A stretch of DNA of 64,000 bases from an uncultured Gammaproteobacteria bacterium (lineage in GTDB: Bacteria; Pseudomonadota; Gammaproteobacteria; SZUA-229): the NCBI GenBank assembly GCA_963847575.1, contig CAWKAL010000045.1:14942-78941 (forward strand). The letters are read 5' to 3'. The notes under the pieces were generated by a model. That model was not told the DNA's origin. It saw only the letters and a list, made by a program, of their open reading frames with translations, and made no database searches. Position 1 is the first letter of the stretch. Each line of letters begins with the position of its first letter. Below, in pieces: positions 22,730 through 43,975 of this stretch. The translations under genes were made by a program, and so were the position numbers.

Positions 22730-22868
22730 CTACGGATGAACGCAAATGAACACGGATGTAAGATTAGTAAAACAGCACTGCAGTATCAATGCGGACTGTG
22801 CACCAGTATTGCGAAGAAAGATTCTACATTGAATTTATCTGTGTTCATCCGCGTTCATCCGTGGATAA
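22730..22868. repeat. MITE-like hairpin element, copy C (CRGATGAAC-type arms)
   Basis: Left arm ctacggatgaacgcaaatgaacacggatgtaa (22730-22761); right arm ttatctgtgttcatccgcgttcatccgtggataa (22835-22868) is its near reverse complement. Begins 12 nt after the nth stop. Confidence 0.75.
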
Positions 22869-22920
22869 TTATTTCATTACCTCTGTTAAACTGGTGCACA
22901 ACCCAACCACAGTAATCATC

Positions 22921-23370
22921 ATGTTCGGTAACGACCGCAATCAGCTCAGAAAAGTTTTCTACGACTGCTGGCAGGCTAAACAGTCGGGTGCTCCGCTGGA
23001 CGCCATGCAGCAGATGATTGCGCGCATTATCGAACTTCACCCCGAATATCACAGCTTGCTACAAAACCCTGACGCGCTGGATCGCGACTACCTGCCCGAG
23101 CATGGCGAGACCAATCCCTTCCTGCACATGAGCATGCACATCGCACTGGGTGAACAGCTGGCAATAGACCGCCCTGCGGGCATTCTGAGCTGCTATCAAA
23201 CACTGACAGACAAGGCCGGCTCGGCCCACGAAGCCGAGCATGAAATGATGGAATGCCTGGCCGAGGCGCTGTGGCAGGCTCAGCGCCAGCAACAAATGCC
23301 GGATGAGGCGGCCTACCTCGACTGCATACGCATCCGCGCGGGATTGAAAAAAAAATCAGACAAGGTGTGA
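22921..23370 (+). CDS. DUF1841 family protein
   Basis: Probable start MFGNDRNQLRKVFYDCWQAK..; ..HPEYHSLLQNPDAL..GETNPFLHMSMHIALGEQLAIDRPAGI..EAEHEMMECLAEALWQAQR matches the DUF1841 pattern. The listed longer ORF overlaps repeat C. Confidence 0.75.
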   Translation: MFGNDRNQLRKVFYDCWQAKQSGAPLDAMQQMIARIIELHPEYHSLLQNPDALDRDYLPEHGETNPFLHMSMHIALGEQLAIDRPAGILSCYQTLTDKAGSAHEAEHEMMECLAEALWQAQRQQQMPDEAAYLDCIRIRAGLKKKSDKV

Positions 23371-23468
23371 ACTCATCAATTCGGCCATTGTCTTTGAAAG
23401 CGTGAACAATGTACACTCGGTTTCCCAAATGGGGAGACTTAGCCATCTAAAACTGGAGAACTTAAATA

Positions 23469-23792
23469 ATGTCAAACAACACACTCAAAAAATCTCTTGC
23501 TGTTGCCATGGGCGCAAGCTTCGCAGCAGCAATGGCCGTATCACCTGTTGCCAATGCTGACAGCAACCCGTTCGGCATGAGCAAGCTGTCAAGCGGTTAC
23601 ATGCAAGTAGCAGAAGGCAAATGCGGTGAAGGCAAGTGCGGCGAAGGCAAGACAAAGAAAGAAGGCAAATGCGGTGAAGGCAAATGTGGCGAAGGCAAGA
23701 AAGCCGAAGGCAAATGCGGTGAAGGCAAATGCGGCGAAGACAAAATGAAGAAAGAAGGCAAATGTGGCGGTGAAAAAGAAGACGCTGAATAA
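23469..23792 (+). CDS. RiPP precursor: Sec-signal peptide followed by EGKCG cysteine repeats (HvfA/bufferin-like metallophore precursor)
   Basis: 107 aa; signal peptide ..AMAVSPVANA|DS; core has seven Cys in Gly-Lys-Cys-Gly contexts (mostly EGKCG; GKCGE x3, GKCGEG x3, GKCGG x1) as tandem decapeptides separated by K-rich linkers; the DNA shows a 30-nt tandem repeat. Lies 4 genes upstream of the DUF692/DUF2063 pair. Confidence 0.8.
   Translation: MSNNTLKKSLAVAMGASFAAAMAVSPVANADSNPFGMSKLSSGYMQVAEGKCGEGKCGEGKTKKEGKCGEGKCGEGKKAEGKCGEGKCGEDKMKKEGKCGGEKEDAE
23619..23750 (+). repeat. intragenic tandem repeat (about 30-33 nt unit, gaaggcaaatgcggtgaaggcaa(a/g)tg(c/t)ggc) encoding the EGKCGEGKCG units
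   Basis: Visible directly in the sequence; also produces the mirror-image ORFs in the other frames. Confidence 0.7.
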
Positions 23793-23816
23793 GCCCTTCA
23801 AACATTGCATACTAAA

Positions 23817-23845
23817 AAGCCCCGGCATTGTCCGGGGTTTTTTTA
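23817..23845 (+). terminator. rho-independent terminator just after the precursor gene
   Basis: aagccccggcattgtccggggttttttt: 6-bp GC stem ccccgg/ccgggg, 6-nt loop, T7 run. Confidence 0.75.
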
Positions 23846-23978
23846 TGTTCATTTACCAGTAAATATGTTACACATTTAAATCCGCACCAGGTTAACGCTG
23901 ATATCTGCACAAGAATAACAAGCATAACAGGCAGCCTTGAATATCAGGGTTTACTTATAAACGAGGAGGAATATCAGC

Positions 23979-25514
23979 ATGTTTTCAGGTGAGTCAGTAG
24001 GACTGGAAATTCTTGGCTGGATGACAACGCTATTCATCGTTGCCGTCGGCGGCTTTATACTTTTTCTGATCGGCGTTTATATCTCCGATGTCACCCAGAC
24101 CAAGCAGGCAATTCGGCGCAACTACCCGATCATTGGCCATTTCCGTTATTACTTCGAGCACATGGGTACGTTCTTCCGCCAGTATTTTTTCGCCATGGAT
24201 CGCGAAGAAATGCCATTCAACCGCGCGCAACGTTCATGGGTGTATCGTGCCGCCAAGGACATCGATAACACGGTTGCCTTCGGCTCTACACGCGATCTGC
24301 GGCCTGCAGGCACCATGCTGTTTGTGAATTGCGCCTTCCCCACACTGGGTCAGGATGCGGTTGATCCCGAGCCGGTCACTATCGGCGAAGGCTATTGCGA
24401 GAAACCCTATACCACGTCCTCGCTGATCAATATTTCCGGCATGAGCTACGGCGCCATTTCCAAACCCGCGGTACAGGCACTGTCCTATGGCGCGATGAAA
24501 GCGGGCAGCTGGATTAACACCGGTGAAGGCGGACTTTCACCCTATCACCTCGAAGGCGGCGCGGACATCGTGCTGCAGATCGGCACGGCAAAATACGGTG
24601 TGCGCGATGAAGCCGGAAACCTGTCGGATGAAAAACTGCGCGAAGCCGCTGCCCACGAGCAGGTTCGCATGTTCGAAATCAAGATGTCGCAGGGCGCCAA
24701 GCCCGGCAAGGGCGGCATGTTGCCTGGTGCCAAGGTCGATGCTGAAATTTCAGCCATACGCGGCATCCCCATCGGTACCGATTCCATTAGCCCAAACCGT
24801 CACACTGAAATTACTTCTAACGACGCATTGCTGGACATGATCGAACGCGTGCGCACGGTCACCGGAAAACCGACCGGCTTCAAGGTGGTGCTGGGTGATG
24901 ACATCTGGATCAATGAACTCTGCGCCTGCATCGTGAAACGCGGCATTGCATCCGCGCCTGACTTTATTACCGTGGACAGCTCCGACGGCGGCACCGGCGC
25001 GGCCCCGATGAGCCTGCTGGATTATGTCGGCCTGCCGGTGACAGAAAGCCTGCCGCTACTGGTCGATGCACTCAATCGTCACGGCCTGCGTCCGCGCGTG
25101 CGCGTGGTAGCTTCCGGCAAGTTGATTAACCCCAGCGATGTCGCCTGGGCATTGTGCGCGGGAACGGATTTCGTCACTTCTGCGCGCGGCTTCATGTTTG
25201 CACTTGGCTGTATCCAGGCACTGCAATGCAACAAGAACACCTGCCCCACCGGTATCACCACGCACGACAAAAAACTGCAAAAAGGCCTGGTGGCCGAGCA
25301 GAAATCCACACGCGTACTCAATTTCATCAAGAACATTGAATATGAAGTCGGCGTGATCGCGCATTCATGCGGCGTACGCTCACCGCGCGACCTGAAACGT
25401 CAGCACGTCCGCATCGTGCAGGACAACGGTCATACCGTCGCGCTCAGCCAGTTGTGGCCCGATATAAGCCCACTCGCAGAACCGCTGGCCTCACAGGTAT
25501 CACAGGCGCATTGA
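23979..25514 (+). CDS. membrane-anchored FMN-binding glutamate-synthase-family oxidoreductase (GltB central-domain homologue with 3Fe-4S motif)
   Basis: 511 aa; N-terminal TM helix; ISGMSYGAIS...NTGEGG and QGAKPGKGGMLPGAKV FMN-domain motifs (PF01645-like); Cys triad CIQALQCNKNTCP. Confidence 0.85.
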   Translation: MFSGESVGLEILGWMTTLFIVAVGGFILFLIGVYISDVTQTKQAIRRNYPIIGHFRYYFEHMGTFFRQYFFAMDREEMPFNRAQRSWVYRAAKDIDNTVAFGSTRDLRPAGTMLFVNCAFPTLGQDAVDPEPVTIGEGYCEKPYTTSSLINISGMSYGAISKPAVQALSYGAMKAGSWINTGEGGLSPYHLEGGADIVLQIGTAKYGVRDEAGNLSDEKLREAAAHEQVRMFEIKMSQGAKPGKGGMLPGAKVDAEISAIRGIPIGTDSISPNRHTEITSNDALLDMIERVRTVTGKPTGFKVVLGDDIWINELCACIVKRGIASAPDFITVDSSDGGTGAAPMSLLDYVGLPVTESLPLLVDALNRHGLRPRVRVVASGKLINPSDVAWALCAGTDFVTSARGFMFALGCIQALQCNKNTCPTGITTHDKKLQKGLVAEQKSTRVLNFIKNIEYEVGVIAHSCGVRSPRDLKRQHVRIVQDNGHTVALSQLWPDISPLAEPLASQVSQAH

Positions 25515-25592
25515 ACTCGACGCGACACATCCAGTCCATAGCTGGGTGTACGCATTAAATAATAACTACCAATAGTAAAAGGGGAATCTAAT

Positions 25593-26060
25593 ATGCAAGC
25601 CATCATCTCACTCGGATGCGGTATACACGGTCTACTGAACAAACTGGGCGGGTGGTTGCCACAACTGGGGCTGCGTTTCCTGCTGGCATACGAATTCTGG
25701 GAAGCAGGCATTGAAAAATTCAATGGCAGCAACTGGTTCGTTGATTTTGCTGATCAATTTCCATTTCCTTTTAATATCATTCCACCCGACATCAGCTGGT
25801 TCCTGGCGACCTGGACTGAACTCCTCGGTGCTGCTGCGCTGGTCATCGGGCTGGGCACGCGCTTTGCGGCCGCTTCATTAATCATCCTTGACCTGGTTGC
25901 ATGGTATAGCGTGCATGCCGACAGTGGATACAATGTGTGCAGCAACGGCTTTAAACTGCCCCTGATATACCTGGTGATGTTTATACCGCTGTTGCTAAGC
26001 GGCCCTGGTAAGGCCAGTATTGATCACTTGCTGGCTAAACGCTTTGGCTGCAATTCTTAA
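25593..26060 (+). CDS. DoxX family membrane protein
   Basis: 155 aa, 4 TM helices, LRFLLAYEFWEAGIEKF DoxX-like core; common partner in DUF692/DUF2063 RiPP operons. Confidence 0.8.
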   Translation: MQAIISLGCGIHGLLNKLGGWLPQLGLRFLLAYEFWEAGIEKFNGSNWFVDFADQFPFPFNIIPPDISWFLATWTELLGAAALVIGLGTRFAAASLIILDLVAWYSVHADSGYNVCSNGFKLPLIYLVMFIPLLLSGPGKASIDHLLAKRFGCNS

Positions 26061-26078
26061 TACGCAAAGGGTTTTTGT

Positions 26079-26942
26079 ATGAAAACACAACACTACCCGG
26101 TACAGGGGGCAGGCCTCGGACTGCGGCGCGAGATCATGGATGACATGCTCGCGGCCTCACTCGACCAGGTCAGCTTCATGGAAGTGGCGCCTGAAAACTG
26201 GATTGGTGTTGGCGGAAAATTTGGCAAACAATTGCGCGCATTTACCGAGCGTTTTGATTTCGTCTGTCACGGCCTGTCACTTTCCATCGGCAGCCCTTCG
26301 GGTCTCGATGAAGCATTCGTCAAACAGGTTGGGATTTTTCTGCGTGAACATGGCGTGAAGTATTACAGCGAGCATCTGACTTATTGCTCTGACGATGGCC
26401 ATTTGTACGACCTGCTACCGATACCGTTCACCGAAGAAGCCGTGCATTATGTGGCTGAGCGCATTCGTCGTGTGCAGGACATTCTTGGCCAGCAGATTGC
26501 CATGGAAAATGCATCTTATTATTCGCCAGCACCCGGCAGCGACATGAGTGAAATTGATTTTATCAATGCTGTGCTCACAGAAGCTGATTGCGGCTTACTG
26601 ATCGACGTGAATAATATTTATGTCAATTCAGTCAATCACGCGTATGACCCGATTGAATTTATGAAGCAACTGCCAGCAGAACGCATCAGGTATGCGCATA
26701 TTGCCGGCCATTACAATGAGGCTGCTGACCTGATTGTTGATACCCACGGCGCAGATGTAATTGACCCGGTATGGGATATCCTTGACAAAGCCTATGCACA
26801 CTTCGGTGTGTTTCCAACATTGCTGGAACGCGATTTTAATATTCCGCCAGTCACCGAATTACTTGGTGAAGTCGATACTATCATTGAGTACCAGGACAAA
26901 TGGAAACACGATAAAACGCGACAGGGCCGCGCGCATGGCTAA
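26079..26942 (+). CDS. MNIO-family (DUF692, MbnB-like) RiPP maturase
   Basis: 287 aa; TIM-barrel DUF692/UPF0276 pattern (GLGLRRE..., EVAPENW, HGLSLSIGS, YSEHLTY, AMENASYY, YAHIAGH, VDTHGA). Confidence 0.85.
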   Translation: MKTQHYPVQGAGLGLRREIMDDMLAASLDQVSFMEVAPENWIGVGGKFGKQLRAFTERFDFVCHGLSLSIGSPSGLDEAFVKQVGIFLREHGVKYYSEHLTYCSDDGHLYDLLPIPFTEEAVHYVAERIRRVQDILGQQIAMENASYYSPAPGSDMSEIDFINAVLTEADCGLLIDVNNIYVNSVNHAYDPIEFMKQLPAERIRYAHIAGHYNEAADLIVDTHGADVIDPVWDILDKAYAHFGVFPTLLERDFNIPPVTELLGEVDTIIEYQDKWKHDKTRQGRAHG

Positions 26943-27705
26943 CAGTTCACTGCCCGGATTTAAACAGACGCAATACGAATTAACAGCACACCTGCGTGAT
27001 CCGAAGCACAACCCCGCGCCGGCAAATATCGAAGATCGTCGCCTGGCTATTTACCGCGAGCTGATTTATAACAACATCGAAGGTTTCCTTTCCAACGGAT
27101 TCCCGGTGATCCGGTCAATCTACAGCGACGACCACTGGCACAGCATGGTTCGTGATTTTCTCGCCCGCCACCAGTCAAACTCTCCCTATTTCCTGGAAAT
27201 TTCCCAGGAGTTCCTGGCCTACCTGGATAATGAACGAGAGCCTCAGCCTGAAGATCCCACAGGCCTGCTCGAGCTTGCGCATTACGAGTGGGTCGAACTG
27301 GCTCTCAGCGTGGCAGATGAATCGATCGACATGACAGCTGTCGATCCGAACGCCGACCTGCTCGAAGGCCATCCGTTACTGTCGCCTGTCGCCTGGCCGC
27401 TGGCTTACCAGTTTCCGGTACACAAGATGTCAGCAGACTATCTGCCCGAGGTTGCGCCCGAACAACCGACCTATCTCGTGGTCTATCGCAACCGTAACGA
27501 TGAAGTTAAGTTTATGGAGACCAATCCTGTCACCGCACGTCTGCTGCACTTGATACAGCAAAATCCGTCAATCACCGGCAGACAGGCGATTGAACAGATT
27601 GCCGTCGAAATGCAACACCCTAATCCTGACATCGTCATGCAGGGTGGACAAGCTGCACTGCACGAACTGCAGGCGTCCGGCATACTGACGGGGTGCCAGA
27701 AGTGA
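26935..27705 (+). CDS. DUF2063 (MbnC-like) RiPP maturation partner protein
   Basis: 8-nt overlap with the DUF692 gene; MANSSLPGFKQTQYELTAHLRDP..IYRELIYNNIEGFLSNGFP matches the DUF2063 N-terminal domain. Confidence 0.8.
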   Translation: MANSSLPGFKQTQYELTAHLRDPKHNPAPANIEDRRLAIYRELIYNNIEGFLSNGFPVIRSIYSDDHWHSMVRDFLARHQSNSPYFLEISQEFLAYLDNEREPQPEDPTGLLELAHYEWVELALSVADESIDMTAVDPNADLLEGHPLLSPVAWPLAYQFPVHKMSADYLPEVAPEQPTYLVVYRNRNDEVKFMETNPVTARLLHLIQQNPSITGRQAIEQIAVEMQHPNPDIVMQGGQAALHELQASGILTGCQK

Positions 27706-27777: not shown

Positions 27778-28200
27778 TTGTCATTGCCCGACGAGAAATG
27801 GAGCAGAATCTTGAATACATTCGAACTCAATTTTGCCAGGATCAACCTGTTAAGAGATGATATTGCCGAAGTCATCATTCATAACGGGATTGAACTCAAT
27901 GTTGACATGGTCAATGAGTACCATGACTTTCTCATTACCCATCTAACGCCGCCGTTTTCATTATTGATCAACAAGGTAAATTCATATACCTACGATTTTG
28001 ATGCACAGCAAACGCTGGCCACGATTGAACACATAAACGCCATGGCAGTCGTTGCCTACAAACGAAGTGCAGTCATTACCACCGAGTACCTGGCTTCTCA
28101 GCCGCGTGAAAAACAATGGAACCTGCAAATATTTTCAGATCGCGAATCCGCAATGCAATGGCTCACAACAGAACAGGATTCCTGTGCGACGCCCGCCTGA
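27778..28200 (+). CDS. hypothetical protein, possibly STAS/DUF3478-like
   Basis: 140 aa ORF, no strong motif; start uncertain (possible TTG at 27823). Confidence 0.45.
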   Translation: MSLPDEKWSRILNTFELNFARINLLRDDIAEVIIHNGIELNVDMVNEYHDFLITHLTPPFSLLINKVNSYTYDFDAQQTLATIEHINAMAVVAYKRSAVITTEYLASQPREKQWNLQIFSDRESAMQWLTTEQDSCATPA

Positions 28201-28259: not shown

Positions 28260-28841
28260 ATGATTCTGATGAAAAATAATGTACTGCTGATAACAACGCT
28301 GTTCACCGTGTTCGCAACGACCCTGTCTATCGCCGGCGGGACAATCGTTAAGGTTCATGAAAATCCCGACAGCCACCTGCTGACCTGGACAGCTGAAGAC
28401 GATGGTTTCAGCATAGAGCTCATTCAGCTGCTGCCGGATTTCGTACGCGCCATCTACAGTAACCACCACTTCCCTGAAAAAGAAGTTGAGGAAATTGCCG
28501 GTTACTGTGTATTTGGCAGCATTATAAAAAACACTTCCGACAAAACGCTCACGTACAAAGTTGCCGACTGGCGATATGTTGCTGACAATAGCACGCCTAT
28601 GCCGGTTAAAACAAAAAGCCAGTGGCTCGAACAATGGCGCAAGTCAGGCATTACATTTTCCTGGACCCTGCTTCCCGATGCCGGCACTTTCTATGTCGGT
28701 GACTGGCAACAGGGCTTTACCACGATAAAACTGCCGCGTAACAGCGAATTCGACCTGATCTTCAAATGGCAACTTGATGGTAAAGAACATGTCGGAAAAA
28801 TCGAGAAGTTGCGCTGCCCACCTGCCACCTTAGGTCAATGA
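28260..28841 (+). CDS. hypothetical secreted protein
   Basis: Probable start MILMKNNVLLITTLFTVFATTLSIAGG (signal peptide); no recognised domain. Confidence 0.6.
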   Translation: MILMKNNVLLITTLFTVFATTLSIAGGTIVKVHENPDSHLLTWTAEDDGFSIELIQLLPDFVRAIYSNHHFPEKEVEEIAGYCVFGSIIKNTSDKTLTYKVADWRYVADNSTPMPVKTKSQWLEQWRKSGITFSWTLLPDAGTFYVGDWQQGFTTIKLPRNSEFDLIFKWQLDGKEHVGKIEKLRCPPATLGQ

Positions 28842-28845
28842 TGGT

Positions 28846-29379
28846 ATGAAAATAAAATTGATAGTTTCCGTTATTCTACTGCTGCTGGCTGGCACATTGT
28901 CCGCCGCCTGGGAACAACCCGAACTCGGCCACGAACTGACACCATTGCCCTCAGCTGTAGCGGCACCGGATTTCGCCCTGAGTGATATGGATGATGAAGC
29001 TCACAGCCTTGCCGACCACCGGGGCAAGGTCATCATGCTCAATTTCTGGGCGACATGGTGCCCACCCTGCCGACGTGAAATGCCCTCAATGGAACGCCTG
29101 CATCAGAACATGAACGCAAAAGACTTCGTGGTAATCGCGATTAACCAGATGGAGACTGCGGATCATGTATTCGCCTATACCGGGCAGCTCGATGTTGACC
29201 CTACGTTCACTATTCTTTTTGACAAGGACAGCGCGGTGTCGCAGGCATACCAGGTCAAGGGTTTGCCGACATCGTACCTCATCGATAAAAAAGGCAATAT
29301 TCGTTACCGTGCCGTGGGTGGCCGTGAGTTTGATCACCCGGCCGTAGAAAAACAGATACGGGATTTAATTAACGAATGA
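28846..29379 (+). CDS. TlpA-family thiol:disulfide oxidoreductase (thioredoxin fold, periplasmic)
   Basis: 177 aa; signal peptide; WATWCPPCRRE active site; AhpC/TSA-like fold. Confidence 0.85.
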   Translation: MKIKLIVSVILLLLAGTLSAAWEQPELGHELTPLPSAVAAPDFALSDMDDEAHSLADHRGKVIMLNFWATWCPPCRREMPSMERLHQNMNAKDFVVIAINQMETADHVFAYTGQLDVDPTFTILFDKDSAVSQAYQVKGLPTSYLIDKKGNIRYRAVGGREFDHPAVEKQIRDLINE

Positions 29380-35698: not shown

Positions 35699-37354
35699 AT
35701 GAAAGCCTCTGATCTATTCGTCAAATGTCTCGAAGCTGAAGGTATTGAATATATCTTCGGCGTACCCGGCGAAGAAAACGCCGATTTCATGATCTCGCTG
35801 GAAGAATCCGAGACCATCAAGTTCATCCTGTGCCGTCATGAACAGGGCGCAGCATTTATGGCGGAAATCTACGGCCGTCTCACCGGTCAGCCTGCCGGCT
35901 GTCTCGGTACGCTCGGCCCGGGCGCCACCAACCTGATTACCGGGGTTGCTGATTCCAATATGGATCGCTCACCCATGCTGGTACTCACCGGCCAGGGCTC
36001 GACCGAAAGACTGCACAAGGAATCACACCAGATCATGGACGTGGTGCACATGTTCGAACCGGTGACCAAGTGGGCGACCACGGTCCTGCACCAGGACAAT
36101 ATCCCGGAAATCGTACGCAAGGCAGTACGCCTGGCGCGCACTGAAAAACCCGGCGCGGTGCATATCGAACTGCCCGAAGACATCGCCAGCAACGACGCCA
36201 AAACCAGCCCGATGCAGCCACGCCGTTTCAGGCGCCCGGTGCCTGACGACAAAATCGTCGACCAGGCATACCAGATCCTGAAAAAAGCCAAACGACCGAT
36301 CATCCTTGCCGGCAACGGCTGTATTCGTAAACGCGCCAGCAAACAGCTGCGCGCCTTTTGTGAAAAAACCGGCATCGGCGTAATCAGCACCTTCATGGCC
36401 AAGGGCTGCGTCGACATGAATGCTGACTACTGCCTGTATACCATCGGCCTGCAGGCCAAGGACGTGGTCGCCTGCGCCATCGATGCCGCGGACGTGGTGC
36501 TATGCCTCGGCTACGACATGGTGGAATACCATCCTGAACTGTGGAATTCAAAACGCGACAAGCACATTATTCATGCCGACTTTTTACCGGCTGAAATCGA
36601 TGAATTTTTTCACCCCGAAACCGAAGTGGTCGGTGACCTGGCGCACGCGCTGTGGATGCTCAACGAACGCGTGGCTGCCGAACAGACACCGCTCAAGTTC
36701 GATTTATCACAACAGGCCGCCACCCGCCGCGACATGAGTGCCGAACTGGAAATGTACAAGGACGACAAAACCAGCGGTGTCATCAAACCGCAAAAAGTGC
36801 TGTGGGACGTACGCCAGGTGATGGGCCGCCACGACGTGCTGCTGTCCGATGTCGGCGCACATAAAATGTGGATTGCTCGGCATTATCAGTGCCACGAACC
36901 CAATACCTGCTTAATACCCAATGGTTTTTGCTCGATGGGCTTTGCCCTGCCCGGCGCGATCGCCGCCGATATCGTGTTCCCGCAAAAACGCATCCTCGCG
37001 ATCTGCGGTGATGCCGGCTTCATGATGAACATGCAGGAAATGGAAACTGCACGACGGCTGAATTCAGACATCGTTGTCATGGTGTGGGAAGACAAGGAAT
37101 ACGGCCTGATCGCCTGGAAACAACAGGCACATTTCGGCAAGCACACCGATCTGTCATTTGGTAACCCCGACTGGCTGAAACTGGCCGAAGCCTTCGGCTG
37201 GCACGGCCACTTCGTCGACAACAGCGAGAACCTGGTCGACACCCTGGAAACCGCGTTCGAAGAAATGGGCCCAAGCCTGGTGGTGATACCGATCGACTAC
37301 GACGAAAACATGAAACTCACCAAACGGCTGGGTGATATTGCGTGCCCGATTTGA
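35699..37354 (+). CDS. acetolactate-synthase-like thiamine-pyrophosphate enzyme (AlsS family)
   Basis: 551 aa; TPP N-domain (FGVPGEEN..RHEQGAAFMAEIYGRLTGQPAGCLGTLGPGATN) and C-terminal TPP-binding GDAGFMMN motif. Confidence 0.85.
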   Translation: MKASDLFVKCLEAEGIEYIFGVPGEENADFMISLEESETIKFILCRHEQGAAFMAEIYGRLTGQPAGCLGTLGPGATNLITGVADSNMDRSPMLVLTGQGSTERLHKESHQIMDVVHMFEPVTKWATTVLHQDNIPEIVRKAVRLARTEKPGAVHIELPEDIASNDAKTSPMQPRRFRRPVPDDKIVDQAYQILKKAKRPIILAGNGCIRKRASKQLRAFCEKTGIGVISTFMAKGCVDMNADYCLYTIGLQAKDVVACAIDAADVVLCLGYDMVEYHPELWNSKRDKHIIHADFLPAEIDEFFHPETEVVGDLAHALWMLNERVAAEQTPLKFDLSQQAATRRDMSAELEMYKDDKTSGVIKPQKVLWDVRQVMGRHDVLLSDVGAHKMWIARHYQCHEPNTCLIPNGFCSMGFALPGAIAADIVFPQKRILAICGDAGFMMNMQEMETARRLNSDIVVMVWEDKEYGLIAWKQQAHFGKHTDLSFGNPDWLKLAEAFGWHGHFVDNSENLVDTLETAFEEMGPSLVVIPIDYDENMKLTKRLGDIACPI

Positions 37355-37627: not shown

Positions 37628-39065
37628 ATGTCTGACCATTTCAAAATGCTTGTCCCCGGCGCCACGCCCAGCGGCAAGGTGGATGTCACCGCGCCGTTTG
37701 ACGGCGCGCATATTGCAACCATCGAAACCGGCGACAACAATGCCGTTGACATGGCGCTTGCCACTGCCGACGCTTTATATAGAGACAGGAAAAACTGGCT
37801 GAGCGCAGAACAACGCATCAAGGTGCTGGATAAAACCGCAGACATCATGCAATCACGGGCTGAAGCGCTCGCGCTTGAAGCCGCGCGCGAAGGCGGCAAA
37901 CCCCTGATCGATTCACGCGTCGAAGTCGCGCGCGCCATCGACGGCATTAAAAACTGCATCGAAGTTTTACGCAGCGGGCACGGCGAAGAAATTCCCATGC
38001 AGAAAAATGCCGCATCGATGAACCGGCTGGCCTTCACCACGCACGAACCCATCGGCGTGGTGGTTGCAGTGAGTGCATTCAATCATCCACTGAATCTTGC
38101 GGTACACCAGGTCGGGCCCGCCATTGCCGCAGGCTGCCCGGTCATTATCAAACCGGCGGGCGATACGCCATTCTCGTGTTTTCGCCTGATCAGTATTCTA
38201 CGCGAAGCCGGCCTGCCCGATGGCTGGTGCCAGGGCATTGTCACCGACGCACGCGAAGCCGCGACCCGGCTGGTGACAGATGCGCGCGTTGGATTTTTCA
38301 GTTTTATCGGCAGCGCAAAAGTCGGCTGGATGCTGCGCTCACAACTTGCACCGGGAGCGCGCTGCGCACTCGAACACGGCGGTGTCGCACCGGTGATTGT
38401 CGCAGAAGACGCCGATCTTGAAGACGCTATCCCGTTACTCGCCAAGGCCGGCTTCTATCACGCCGGCCAGGTCTGTGTTTCAGTACAACGCGTGTATGCG
38501 CATAAATCGATTGCACGCACAGCTCGCGAACAACATTGCCGATATCGGCAATAAAATGAAAGTGGGCGACCCCACCCTGGCGGACACCGATGTTGGCCCG
38601 CTGATTCGCGAATCGGAAACCGATCGCATTCACGCCTGGGTAAGCGAAGCGGTGCAGGAAGGGGCGGAATTAATCTGTGGTGGAAAAAATATCACCGCCA
38701 GCACTTACCAGCCTACGGTGCTTTTCAATGCACCCGATGATGCCACCATTTCGCGCAATGAAATATTCGGCCCGGTGATCCAGGTCTACGAATACGACAA
38801 TATTGACGACGCAATCAGGCGCGCAAACGCACTCGATGTTTCATTCCAGGCATCGGTATTTTCCAGCAACATCAACACCTGCCTGTATGCATTCAAACAT
38901 CTCAACGGTTCTGCCATCATGGTAAACGACCACACCGCCTTCCGGGTCGACTGGATGCCATTCGCCGGCCTGAAACATTCCGGTCACGGTGTCGGCGGCA
39001 TCCCGCACACATTCAAGGACATGCAAATCGAAAAAATGATGGTGATACGCTCAAAGCTGCTCTAG
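37628..39065 (+). CDS. NAD(P)-dependent aldehyde dehydrogenase family protein, with an apparent frameshift near 38500-38530
   Basis: First frame has ALDH N-terminal and catalytic regions up to ..GQVCVSVQRVYAHKSIA; second frame continues ..LANNIADIGNKMKVGDP...EIFGPV...; joined length about 478 aa is typical. Confidence 0.75.
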
Positions 39066-43674: not shown

Positions 43675-43714
43675 TGTGGGTGTTGTCGTTATGTTCCTAA
43701 ATAGTTAATGTGCA

Positions 43715-43975
43715 GCTTACCGCAGGTGCCTGTTGTAGAGCCATTCTGCAACAGGTTAAACGGGAAGTCAGTAAGCGATTCTGGAGTCACTGAATATTTT
43801 TTCAGCGATCTCGAGTAGTTACAAACGCAATTCTGACGCTGCCCCCGCAACGGTGATTGAGTCAAAGCCCTGTCGTACACCACTGTAAGCATGCTTATGG
43901 GAAGGTGACAGGCGCAAAGTCGCAAGACACTCATCAGCCCGGAGACCGGCCCGTGGTGCCCTCTAACTTACACGC
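43715..43975 (+). promoter_or_regulatory. cobalamin (AdoCbl) riboswitch in the btuB leader
   Basis: Core-like cgggaagtcagtaagcgattctggagtcactg; cactg...gggaaggtg; B12 box agcccggagaccggcc at 43936-43951; GC hairpin overlapping the btuB RBS. Confidence 0.55.

Follow-up and report, generated by a model that had tools for sequence, protein, structure and literature searches.

A stretch of 64,000 nucleotides from an uncultured Gammaproteobacteria bacterium (contig CAWKAL010000045.1, positions 14,942 to 78,941 of the forward strand; hereafter the window) carries a cluster of five co-oriented genes at positions 23469-27705, which is almost certainly an hvf-type ('oxazolin' or captophorin) operon for a metallophore of the RiPP class (peptides made on the ribosome and then modified after translation). 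The core of this operon is a further member of the EGKCG/oxazolin family, which is about 2,000 strong and whose chemistry has already been worked out, and there is nothing new in it. The operon also contains a gene for a membrane-anchored flavin mononucleotide (FMN)/3Fe-4S enzyme that resembles part of glutamate synthase (GltS). We suggest herein, with a probability of about 60%, that this flavoenzyme is an optional redox accessory of the hvf system, which works with the DoxX-family membrane protein HvfX and does not tailor the peptide. The suggestion draws mainly on a linkage of the flavoenzyme gene to hvfX and to MNIO (DUF692) gene clusters that resists rearrangement and spans three classes of precursor.

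A reconstitution of HvfABC from nontypeable Haemophilus influenzae was published in 2024, and the name oxazolin was given to the product (PMC11252979). In 2026 the modification of oxazolin and of its Fontimonas and Neisseria homologues, previously given as oxazolone/thioamide, was re-assigned to 5-thiooxazole, and the products were called 'captophorins' (PMC13097082; bioRxiv 10.64898/2026.06.05.730506). The thiooxazole signature of these homologues is a loss of 4 Da per Cys, an absorbance maximum near 305 nm and binding of Cu(I) (PMC11252979, PMC13097082, bioRxiv 10.64898/2026.06.05.730506). About 2,000 'Buf_EGKCG/oxazolin' precursors have been catalogued, in clusters of RiPP, MNIO, DUF2063 and DoxX genes (PMC12452194). 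An earlier note on the window, made from its letters alone, held that the EGKCG class was known essentially only from genome mining, a view that these studies have overtaken. Three recent papers describe the role of DoxX/HvfX as unknown (for HvfX, PMC11252979 and PMC13097082), and in vitro HvfBC reaches its active Fe(II)/Fe(III) form only with a reductant, which is also required to keep the HvfA thiols reduced (bioRxiv 10.64898/2026.07.17.739211). Since HvfBC has this requirement and the function of DoxX/HvfX is unexplained, a redox partner for the system is plausible.

The five open reading frames (ORFs) are arranged as the earlier note had described them, and searches of Pfam and NCBIfam matched each to its proposed family (Table 1). 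HvfX scored 138.9 bits against its family model NF050144 (cutoff 80), HvfB 433.2 bits against NF003818 (cutoff 360), HvfC 334 bits against NF050145 (cutoff 142), and the precursor 49.6 bits against NF050137, 'KCGExKCG_twice, HvfA family' (cutoff 19.5). Because four curated equivalog or domain models were exceeded within one operon, the identity of the core lies far beyond chance, and the proposal of a Cys-modifying MNIO/DUF2063 metallophore cluster of the HvfA/EGKCG type with a DoxX protein is borne out. HvfB also resembles the MNIO of known structure from Histophilus somni (PDB 3BWW, E = 8.5e-78), HvfC resembles NGO1945 (PDB 3DEE, E = 5e-9), and hvfC begins 8 nt before the end of hvfB (ATGGCTAA), an overlap that had been noticed before. 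HvfX is a frequent, not a universal, component of the family. At the sequence level the cluster has every feature of the family save orthologue-level identity to H. influenzae HvfA.

The precursor opens with a Sec-type signal of two Lys and a hydrophobic core, ending in VANA before an Asp (MSNNTLKKSLAVAMGASFAAAMAVSPVANA followed by DS). A conserved segment, NPFGM..L..GYMQVAEG, follows the signal, and the remainder consists of (E)GKCG pentapeptides and Lys-rich linkers, with all seven Cys lying within GKCG. In the DNA the same region appears as a tandem repeat with periods of 15 nt (8.6 copies) and 48 nt (3.3 copies). Repeats and model match together uphold the reading of this ORF as a Sec-exported EGKCG precursor. 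Against the equivalog model for H. influenzae HvfA (NF050188) it scored 36.6 bits, under the cutoff of 95; judged by these scores, it is a member of the HvfA family and not an HvfA equivalog. Homologues of hvfA occupy the same position in dozens of loci. At one flavoenzyme-linked locus (L068:2943-3467), the EGKCG blocks of the precursor are interrupted by a segment that resembles an EF-hand (DADGDGSISKDEF...DANNDGVLSKDEM), in agreement with the second precursor type of PMC12452194.

The flavoenzyme has 511 residues, and PF01645 is the sole domain found in it. In alignments it corresponds to the FMN domain of GltS alpha (1EA0, 2VDC, 7MFM and 1LLW). No class II amidotransferase, central or GXGXG beta-helix domain, all required for glutamate synthesis from glutamine, was found, and the score against the GltB equivalog NF008730 was 134.6 bits, where the cutoff is 1047; for these two reasons, the protein is not a true glutamate synthase. 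Its C-x5-C-x4-C-P motif (C411/C417/C422) falls on Cys1102/1108/1113 of Azospirillum GltS alpha (1EA0), which we take to be the ligands of the 3Fe-4S cluster. Likewise, E903, Q969, K972 and R992 of Synechocystis GltS correspond to E183, Q238, K241 and R261 of the flavoenzyme, and Q978 is replaced by M247, or by Ile in most orthologues; these five GltS positions are presumably residues of the 2-oxoglutarate site or of catalysis. Among 84 orthologues, no variation occurs at E183, Q238, K241, R261, C411 or C417, and C422 is conserved to 99%. The enzyme probably still acts on a glutamate-like or 2-oxoacid-like substrate. A single N-terminal hydrophobic helix at about residues 10-36 precedes a basic stretch (a positive-inside bias), and the catalytic domain should therefore face the cytoplasm. 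Domain, Cys motif and helix agree with the earlier description of a membrane-anchored FMN/3Fe-4S enzyme of the glutamate synthase type. An AlphaFold2 model computed from a 10-sequence alignment reached a mean pLDDT of 57.5, a quality too low to support comparison of folds.

The family is large. More than 8,000 clusters at 90% identity were retrieved as relatives, the top 120 being at least 74% identical, and a tightly conserved orthologous group was found in at least 596 species of a genome collection, in which the closest orthologue (85% identity) came from a Thiotrichaceae metagenome-assembled genome. A library clustered at 50% identity gave a single full-length match above 50% (65%), and its remaining full-length matches were 31-49% identical. 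No functional study of the family was found in the searchable literature.

Linkage was surveyed from the flavoenzyme in the best 80 species loci (63-85% identity, 7-kb flanks), which were scanned by tblastn, purpose-built hidden Markov models and a GKCG regular expression. HvfX was encoded within 7 kb in 19 of the 80 loci (in 15 of them directly adjacent), an MNIO in 16 and a DUF2063 partner in 15. Two genes would be expected to lie within 7 kb of each other in a 3-4 Mb genome in about 0.4% of cases, by a crude estimate of our own; the observed proximity of flavoenzyme and cluster was 20-24%. At least eight gene orders occur among the linked loci. Writing FMN for the flavoenzyme, A, B, C and X for the hvf genes, and TPP and ALDH for neighbouring genes for an acetolactate synthase (ALS)-like thiamine diphosphate (TPP) enzyme and an aldehyde dehydrogenase (ALDH), these are A-FMN-X-B-C (the window, L001, L002, L005-L007), A-B-C-FMN-X (L008, L011, L022), A-B-C-X-FMN (L012, L021, L061), FMN-X-antiporter-B-C (L015), FMN-X-B-C with A displaced (L036, L068), A-TPP-FMN-X-B-C (L114, L125, L126) and A-B-C-TPP-ALDH-FMN-X-antiporter (L046). 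To these are added a BufA2-BufB-DUF2063-HvfX cluster divergent from the flavoenzyme (L048) and bufferin clusters of the DUF2282 type 2-4 kb away from it (L023, L039). A linkage so frequent and so resistant to rearrangement is not a matter of chance.

Wherever the two genes share one strand in a cluster, the flavoenzyme adjoins hvfX, in either order. It is co-oriented in all hvf clusters and divergent only beside the bufferin clusters of L023 and L048, and its linkage covers three precursor classes (EGKCG, BufA1 and BufA2). Moreover, hvf-linked flavoenzymes fall in at least five separate places of a neighbour-joining tree drawn without branch support values. In the window, the gene sits inside the operon, between hvfA and hvfX and downstream of the hvfA terminator, with a strong Shine-Dalgarno sequence (GAGGAGG) and gaps of 186 and 78 nt on its two sides; no terminator was predicted from the flavoenzyme to the end of hvfC.

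A second survey was anchored on HvfB and comprised 80 metagenome contigs (65-80% identity). The flavoenzyme gene was present on 18 of these, 17 of which also had hvfX, and in the same proportion (17/18) it adjoined hvfX; at locus L097, where HvfX is absent, the next gene after it is that of the MNIO. Whether or not a cluster has the flavoenzyme, its precursor is of the same architecture, and the precursors of the two kinds of cluster are indistinguishable. Because the flavoenzyme is optional, is of the same sequence type whether linked or not, accompanies three precursor classes and has a site of the small-molecule type, an accessory role for the shared components of these systems is favoured over tailoring of the peptide. 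As it consistently touches hvfX, and as both products are membrane proteins, a redox pair of flavoenzyme and HvfX is the best-supported specific model.

On this basis a mechanism can be proposed. In the cytoplasm, a complex of HvfB (an MNIO di/tri-iron oxidase) and HvfC would use O2 to carry out a four-electron oxidation of each EGKCG Cys to 5-thiooxazole, as in the captophorins; the Sec signal would then direct export of the peptide to the periplasm, where copper stress would be buffered through binding of Cu(I) by the thiooxazoles. Both the enzymatic steps and export have been established for the H. influenzae, Fontimonas and Neisseria homologues, and we infer them here from membership of the family. 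The flavoenzyme, as a cytoplasm-facing GltS FMN domain with a 3Fe-4S cluster and a single-pass membrane anchor, may oxidize a glutamate-like substrate or reduce a 2-oxo or imino acid. Its FMN and 3Fe-4S centres could trade electrons with HvfX and the membrane, so that reducing equivalents would be supplied to, or drained from, the metallophore system. That the flavoenzyme is functionally tied to the metallophore system at all is probable; that it and HvfX specifically form an electron-transfer pair is a tentative proposal, with odds somewhat below even.

Several observations weigh against an optional redox accessory of this kind. In 43 of the 80 flavoenzyme-anchored loci, none of MNIO, HvfX, TPP enzyme, ALDH or antiporter lies near the gene, and when the count is confined to the 43 loci flanked by 5 kb or more on each side, an MNIO was found in 10 and no recurrent partner in 26. 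An ALS-like TPP enzyme (13/80) together with an ALDH (10/80), or a CPA1 Na+/H+ exchanger (12/80), neighbours the flavoenzyme just as frequently, and these genes hint at a metabolic role. Linked and unlinked flavoenzymes are about equally similar (63-72% identity), and the enzyme therefore has a general function of its own. Many linked loci come from related organisms, mostly uncultured Gammaproteobacteria of marine-sediment, hydrothermal and symbiont samples; part of the linkage is hence inherited synteny, and the counts are not independent. Of the HvfB-anchored contigs that extend 3.5 kb or more to each side, 16 have no flavoenzyme gene, and the co-presence of flavoenzyme and HvfX is not significant (Fisher p = 0.078, with loci that are not phylogenetically independent). 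Locus L098, from a close relative, reproduces the synteny of the window (nth-DUF1841-hvfA-hvfX-hvfB-hvfC-p193-tlpA) minus the flavoenzyme gene. Where L091 has 1,764 nt (L091:3421-5184), L098 has 189 nt (L098:3500-3688), including a 20-codon remnant made of the flavoenzyme N-terminus, ATG TTC CAA GGT GAA TCT TTT GG (MFQGESFG), and of its 3' end; since the remnant still bears that N-terminus, L098 must have deleted the gene and kept the remaining cluster and its flanks intact. The L098 and L091 precursors are near-identical in signal peptide, N-region and first EGKCG repeats, and the two loci offer a natural presence/absence pair for comparison. The transmembrane helix of the flavoenzyme is poorly conserved (0.45, as against about 0.8 for the domain, in the 84 orthologues), which disfavours a specific contact within the membrane, and no fusion of flavoenzyme and DoxX came to light, since ten long flavoenzyme homologues (580-833 aa) from a search of 1.8 billion proteins contain no DoxX domain. 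Finally, hvfABC alone yields fully modified peptide in Escherichia coli (PMC13097082), and the DoxX protein of Caulobacter is dispensable for both modification and copper protection (PMC11626156).

The alternative that survives best, which we nonetheless regard as unlikely, is that the flavoenzyme has nothing to do with the metallophore. It would then be a conserved enzyme of metabolism, a glutamate or 2-oxoacid oxidoreductase that acts together with the ALS-like TPP enzyme and the ALDH. Within one gammaproteobacterial group, it would have a chromosomal neighbourhood in common with the hvf genes, and no more than a stress regulon besides. The TPP and ALDH neighbours counted above speak for it, as they include alphaproteobacterial loci free of hvf genes (L054, L057, L075), and a TPP-ALDH pair occurs in the window itself, 8 kb downstream of the cluster. 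The conserved residues of the presumed GltS substrate site, the many loci lacking a recurrent partner, the tolerated deletion in L098 and the rnf-nth-DUF1841 synteny common to many linked loci are in keeping with it as well. What argues against it is an adjacency that has survived at least eight gene orders and several unrelated flanks and that extends to bufferin clusters. Within hvf clusters, furthermore, the flavoenzyme is always co-oriented and nearly always touches hvfX, and the window gene is embedded in the operon, after the hvfA terminator and before hvfX-B-C.

A role closer to the chemistry, somewhat less likely again, is that of a reductive activase or maintenance reductase for HvfB-HvfC. 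Single electrons would pass from FMN/3Fe-4S to the Fe(II)/Fe(III) cofactor, or the membrane-bound enzyme would hold the Cys of HvfA in the reduced state until Sec export. HvfBC shows no activity unless a reductant is added, is only about 20% mixed-valent even after ascorbate, and has a physiological reductant that is unknown (bioRxiv 10.64898/2026.07.17.739211). The 3Fe-4S centre predicted for the flavoenzyme would be one-electron-capable and cytoplasm-facing, the link to three precursor types points to the common MNIO enzyme and not to one peptide, and in L097 the flavoenzyme gene directly precedes the MNIO gene with HvfX absent. All other architectures, however, place it beside hvfX and not hvfB, and the E. 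coli product was complete without any flavoenzyme (PMC13097082). The majority of orthologues are not near an MNIO gene, and L098 has lost the flavoenzyme.

It is very improbable that the flavoenzyme tailors HvfA, by reducing or oxidizing a heterocycle or a neighbouring residue to give a product other than oxazolin: although its gene directly follows the precursor gene inside the operon, and flavoenzymes are common tailoring enzymes of RiPPs, precursors with and without it are indistinguishable (those of L098 and L091 being nearly identical as far as the first EGKCG repeats), L098 lost it with no other change, it is 63-72% identical to orthologues in genomes without a nearby MNIO cluster, its active site keeps the set presumed to bind a free amino acid or 2-oxoacid in GltS, and three unrelated precursor classes are associated with it. 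The location of most orthologues away from MNIO genes, the L098 deletion and the uniform precursors likewise leave unsupported the earlier suggestion that the extra enzyme leaves the chemistry of the seven Cys an open question.

An optional redox accessory alongside HvfX can be set against several known systems. As in H. influenzae hvfABCX (oxazolin), fonABC (fontiphorin) and ngoABC (gonophorin), the window precursor has a Sec signal and repeated EGKCG motifs, and, likewise in common with these systems, the HvfB-family MNIO, the DUF2063 partner with its RiPP recognition element (RRE) and the DoxX-family HvfX all pass the NCBIfam Hvf models. Unlike them, the window cluster begins with hvfA, which has its own terminator, and the gene order differs; the precursor has seven modifiable Cys instead of six and lacks an N-terminal Cys pair. 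The GltS-like FMN/3Fe-4S gene between hvfA and hvfX is an addition that no description of a characterized cluster includes.

The bufferin clusters (bufABCD, in Caulobacter vibrioides and others) similarly combine an MNIO, a DUF2063 protein, an optional DoxX protein and a Sec-exported Cys-rich precursor, with a role in copper stress, and in some of them, too, the flavoenzyme family occurs beside BufA1 or BufA2 (L023, L048, L039). Unlike them, the window has a precursor of the EGKCG type without a DUF2282 or BufA2 match, an HvfB that falls just under the cutoff of the BufB equivalog NF050167 (262.3 bits, cutoff 310), and no pair of extracytoplasmic function (ECF) sigma and anti-sigma factors. 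With methanobactin (MbnABC) the shared feature is an MNIO and partner that oxidize Cys of a ribosomal peptide to copper-binding heterocycles. HvfB, however, reached 46.2 bits against the MbnB model TIGR04159 (cutoff 325), MbnA has a leader peptide where the window precursor has a Sec signal, and methanobactin, unlike the class of the window, is an oxazolone/thioamide product that is secreted as a chalkophore for copper acquisition.

The flavoenzyme itself shares with GltB and with the FMN domain of ferredoxin-dependent GltS alpha the PF01645 TIM-barrel and the Cys motif, and differs from GltS in its N-terminal membrane anchor and in the replacement of Q978. As a model for a flavoenzyme-HvfX pair, the DoxD/DoxA thiosulfate:quinone oxidoreductase and the DoxX-SodA-SseA complex of Mycobacterium tuberculosis both have a DoxX-family membrane partner of a redox enzyme, a precedent that was cited in PMC11626156 and PMC11252979. 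Unlike in these two, the putative partner of HvfX would be a GltS-like flavo-iron-sulfur protein.

Signals flanking hvfA were also predicted (Table 1). In an alignment of 12 related loci, the blocks TGAACT, TGTCTT and CAnTGTAsACTC upstream of hvfA are invariant or nearly so, and the element they share can be written as TGAACT-N15-TTGTCTTT-N16-TGTAsACTC. From its sequence, this putative promoter can be read as a sigma-70 type (TTGTCT / 18-nt spacer / TACACT) or as an ECF/sigmaE-like type (GAACT-N16-GTCT); a scan for simple promoter consensus sequences did not call it. A hairpin was predicted at the same 5' spot in all 12 related loci when each was folded separately, with stem sequences that differ, and RNAalifold gave no consensus structure on a MAFFT alignment because the loops do not align. 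The terminator after hvfA has a folding energy of -18.7 kcal/mol (z = -4.57), and its CCCCGG...CCGGGG stem is also kept in L091 and L098. Rfam returned no RNA family in or near the cluster. Such a layout would suit a precursor mRNA that is abundant and stable and that is followed by attenuated read-through: the conserved promoter would yield a short hvfA transcript bounded by the 5' hairpin and the terminator, and read-through would give lower expression of the enzyme genes.

Genes around the cluster show varying degrees of association with it. On the upstream side are rnfG, rnfE and nth, together with a DUF1841 gene. Of 46 loci that could be evaluated, 20 have the DUF1841 gene immediately before hvfA and on its strand; where the upstream flank was long enough to judge (15 loci), nth was not adjacent to it in 6. 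DUF1841 next to hvfA could reflect synteny or a further accessory gene. Downstream, no homologue of p140 was found in the 80 flavoenzyme-anchored loci, and this ORF was probably inserted locally. In the closest relatives hvfC is followed by the p193-TlpA pair, which is also found in unrelated contexts free of hvf genes (L164, L166, L168), and it was rejected as a part of the hvf cluster for that reason. The nearby TlpA protein, which the earlier note had taken to fit a periplasmic metal or redox-stress role, is indeed present, and lends such a role weak support because it belongs to an independent conserved pair.

Genes of the TPP and ALDH families are inserted inside hvf clusters at L125, L114, L126, L046, L068, L036 and L016. 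The ALDH gene of the window is split by a frameshift near 38.5 kb, which is either a pseudogene or an assembly error. CPA1-type exchangers (PF00999) adjoin the flavoenzyme and HvfX at, for example, L008:9202-10419, L015:9276-10508, L046:9353-10588 and L048:8545-9756, and occur at loci without hvf genes in L019, L034, L038 and L070. HvfX is itself of two types in closely related clusters, one of about 155 aa (the window, L001, L005, L125) and one of about 200 aa (L002, for example at L002:9746-10351, L007, L091); being only about 25-32% identical, the two suggest replacement of the DoxX gene. Elsewhere in the window, a cobalamin riboswitch unrelated to the cluster was found, and the PADLOC defence models gave no matches.

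Table 1. Position and assignment of features in the window
Feature	Position	Strand	Assignment
DUF1841 gene	22789-23370	+	directly before hvfA
Promoter-like element	23369..23418	+	TGAACT-N15-TTGTCTTT-N16-TGTACACTC, upstream of hvfA
5' untranslated region stem-loop	23419..23442	+	predicted, at or near the predicted hvfA transcript start; -12.2 kcal/mol, z = -2.56
hvfA	23469..23792	+	RiPP precursor, Sec signal, 107 aa, 7 Cys in EGKCG-type repeats; NF050137
Intrinsic terminator/attenuator	23814..23850	+	predicted, 12-bp stem and T-run of 7, between hvfA and the enzyme genes
Flavoenzyme (accessory gene)	23979..25514	+	511 aa; Pfam Glu_synthase PF01645, E 4.7e-86
hvfX	25593..26060	+	DoxX-family integral membrane protein, short 155-aa type; PF07681, E 7.7e-20; NF050144
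hvfB	26079..26942	+	MNIO (DUF692) multi-iron oxidase; PF05114, E 6e-104; NF003818
hvfC	26935..27705	+	DUF2063 / RRE-type partner (PME1); PF09836 and PF22106 (NGO1945_C); NF050145
p140	27778-28200		140 aa, weak DUF7793 match; between hvfC and the p193-TlpA pair
p193	probably 28260-28841		193 aa, signal peptide, periplasmic, no Pfam match, about 950 homologues
TlpA/ResA-like thioredoxin	28846-29379		downstream of p193
ALS-like TPP enzyme	35699-37354
ALDH	37628-39065		split into ORFs 37628-38554 and 38397-39065
Cobalamin riboswitch	43707-43968	+	RF00174, 93.4 bits

That the flavoenzyme is recurrently linked to hvfX and to MNIO clusters is apparently unreported. As far as they were searchable, neither the papers on the MNIO landscape, on HvfA and on fontiphorin nor the supplements to them mention glutamate synthase, PF01645 or FMN, and no match was found in the literature that joins any of these three with DoxX, DUF692, bufferin or oxazolin. 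In the published survey, an unrelated gene was admitted only at a distance of no more than 10 bp from a known cluster gene (PMC12452194); it would have missed the flavoenzyme, since the gaps around this gene are 78-186 nt.

The main value of the finding is this rearrangement-resistant link between an uncharacterized, highly conserved flavo-iron-sulfur enzyme of the membrane and the hvfX/MNIO clusters of all three precursor classes, which makes the flavoenzyme a concrete and testable candidate for the missing redox partner of HvfBC and HvfX. A bolder and rather doubtful extension is that flavoenzyme and HvfX constitute a new membrane electron-transfer module, which couples the oxidation of cytoplasmic amino acids or 2-oxoacids to the captophorin and bufferin systems. 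Such a module might re-reduce periplasmic thiooxazole thiols or Cu(II), or keep the MNIO cofactor mixed-valent. If it exists, it would give a biochemical role to the unexplained DoxX proteins of hvf, buf and gig operons, and a function to a conserved orphan family of flavoenzymes.

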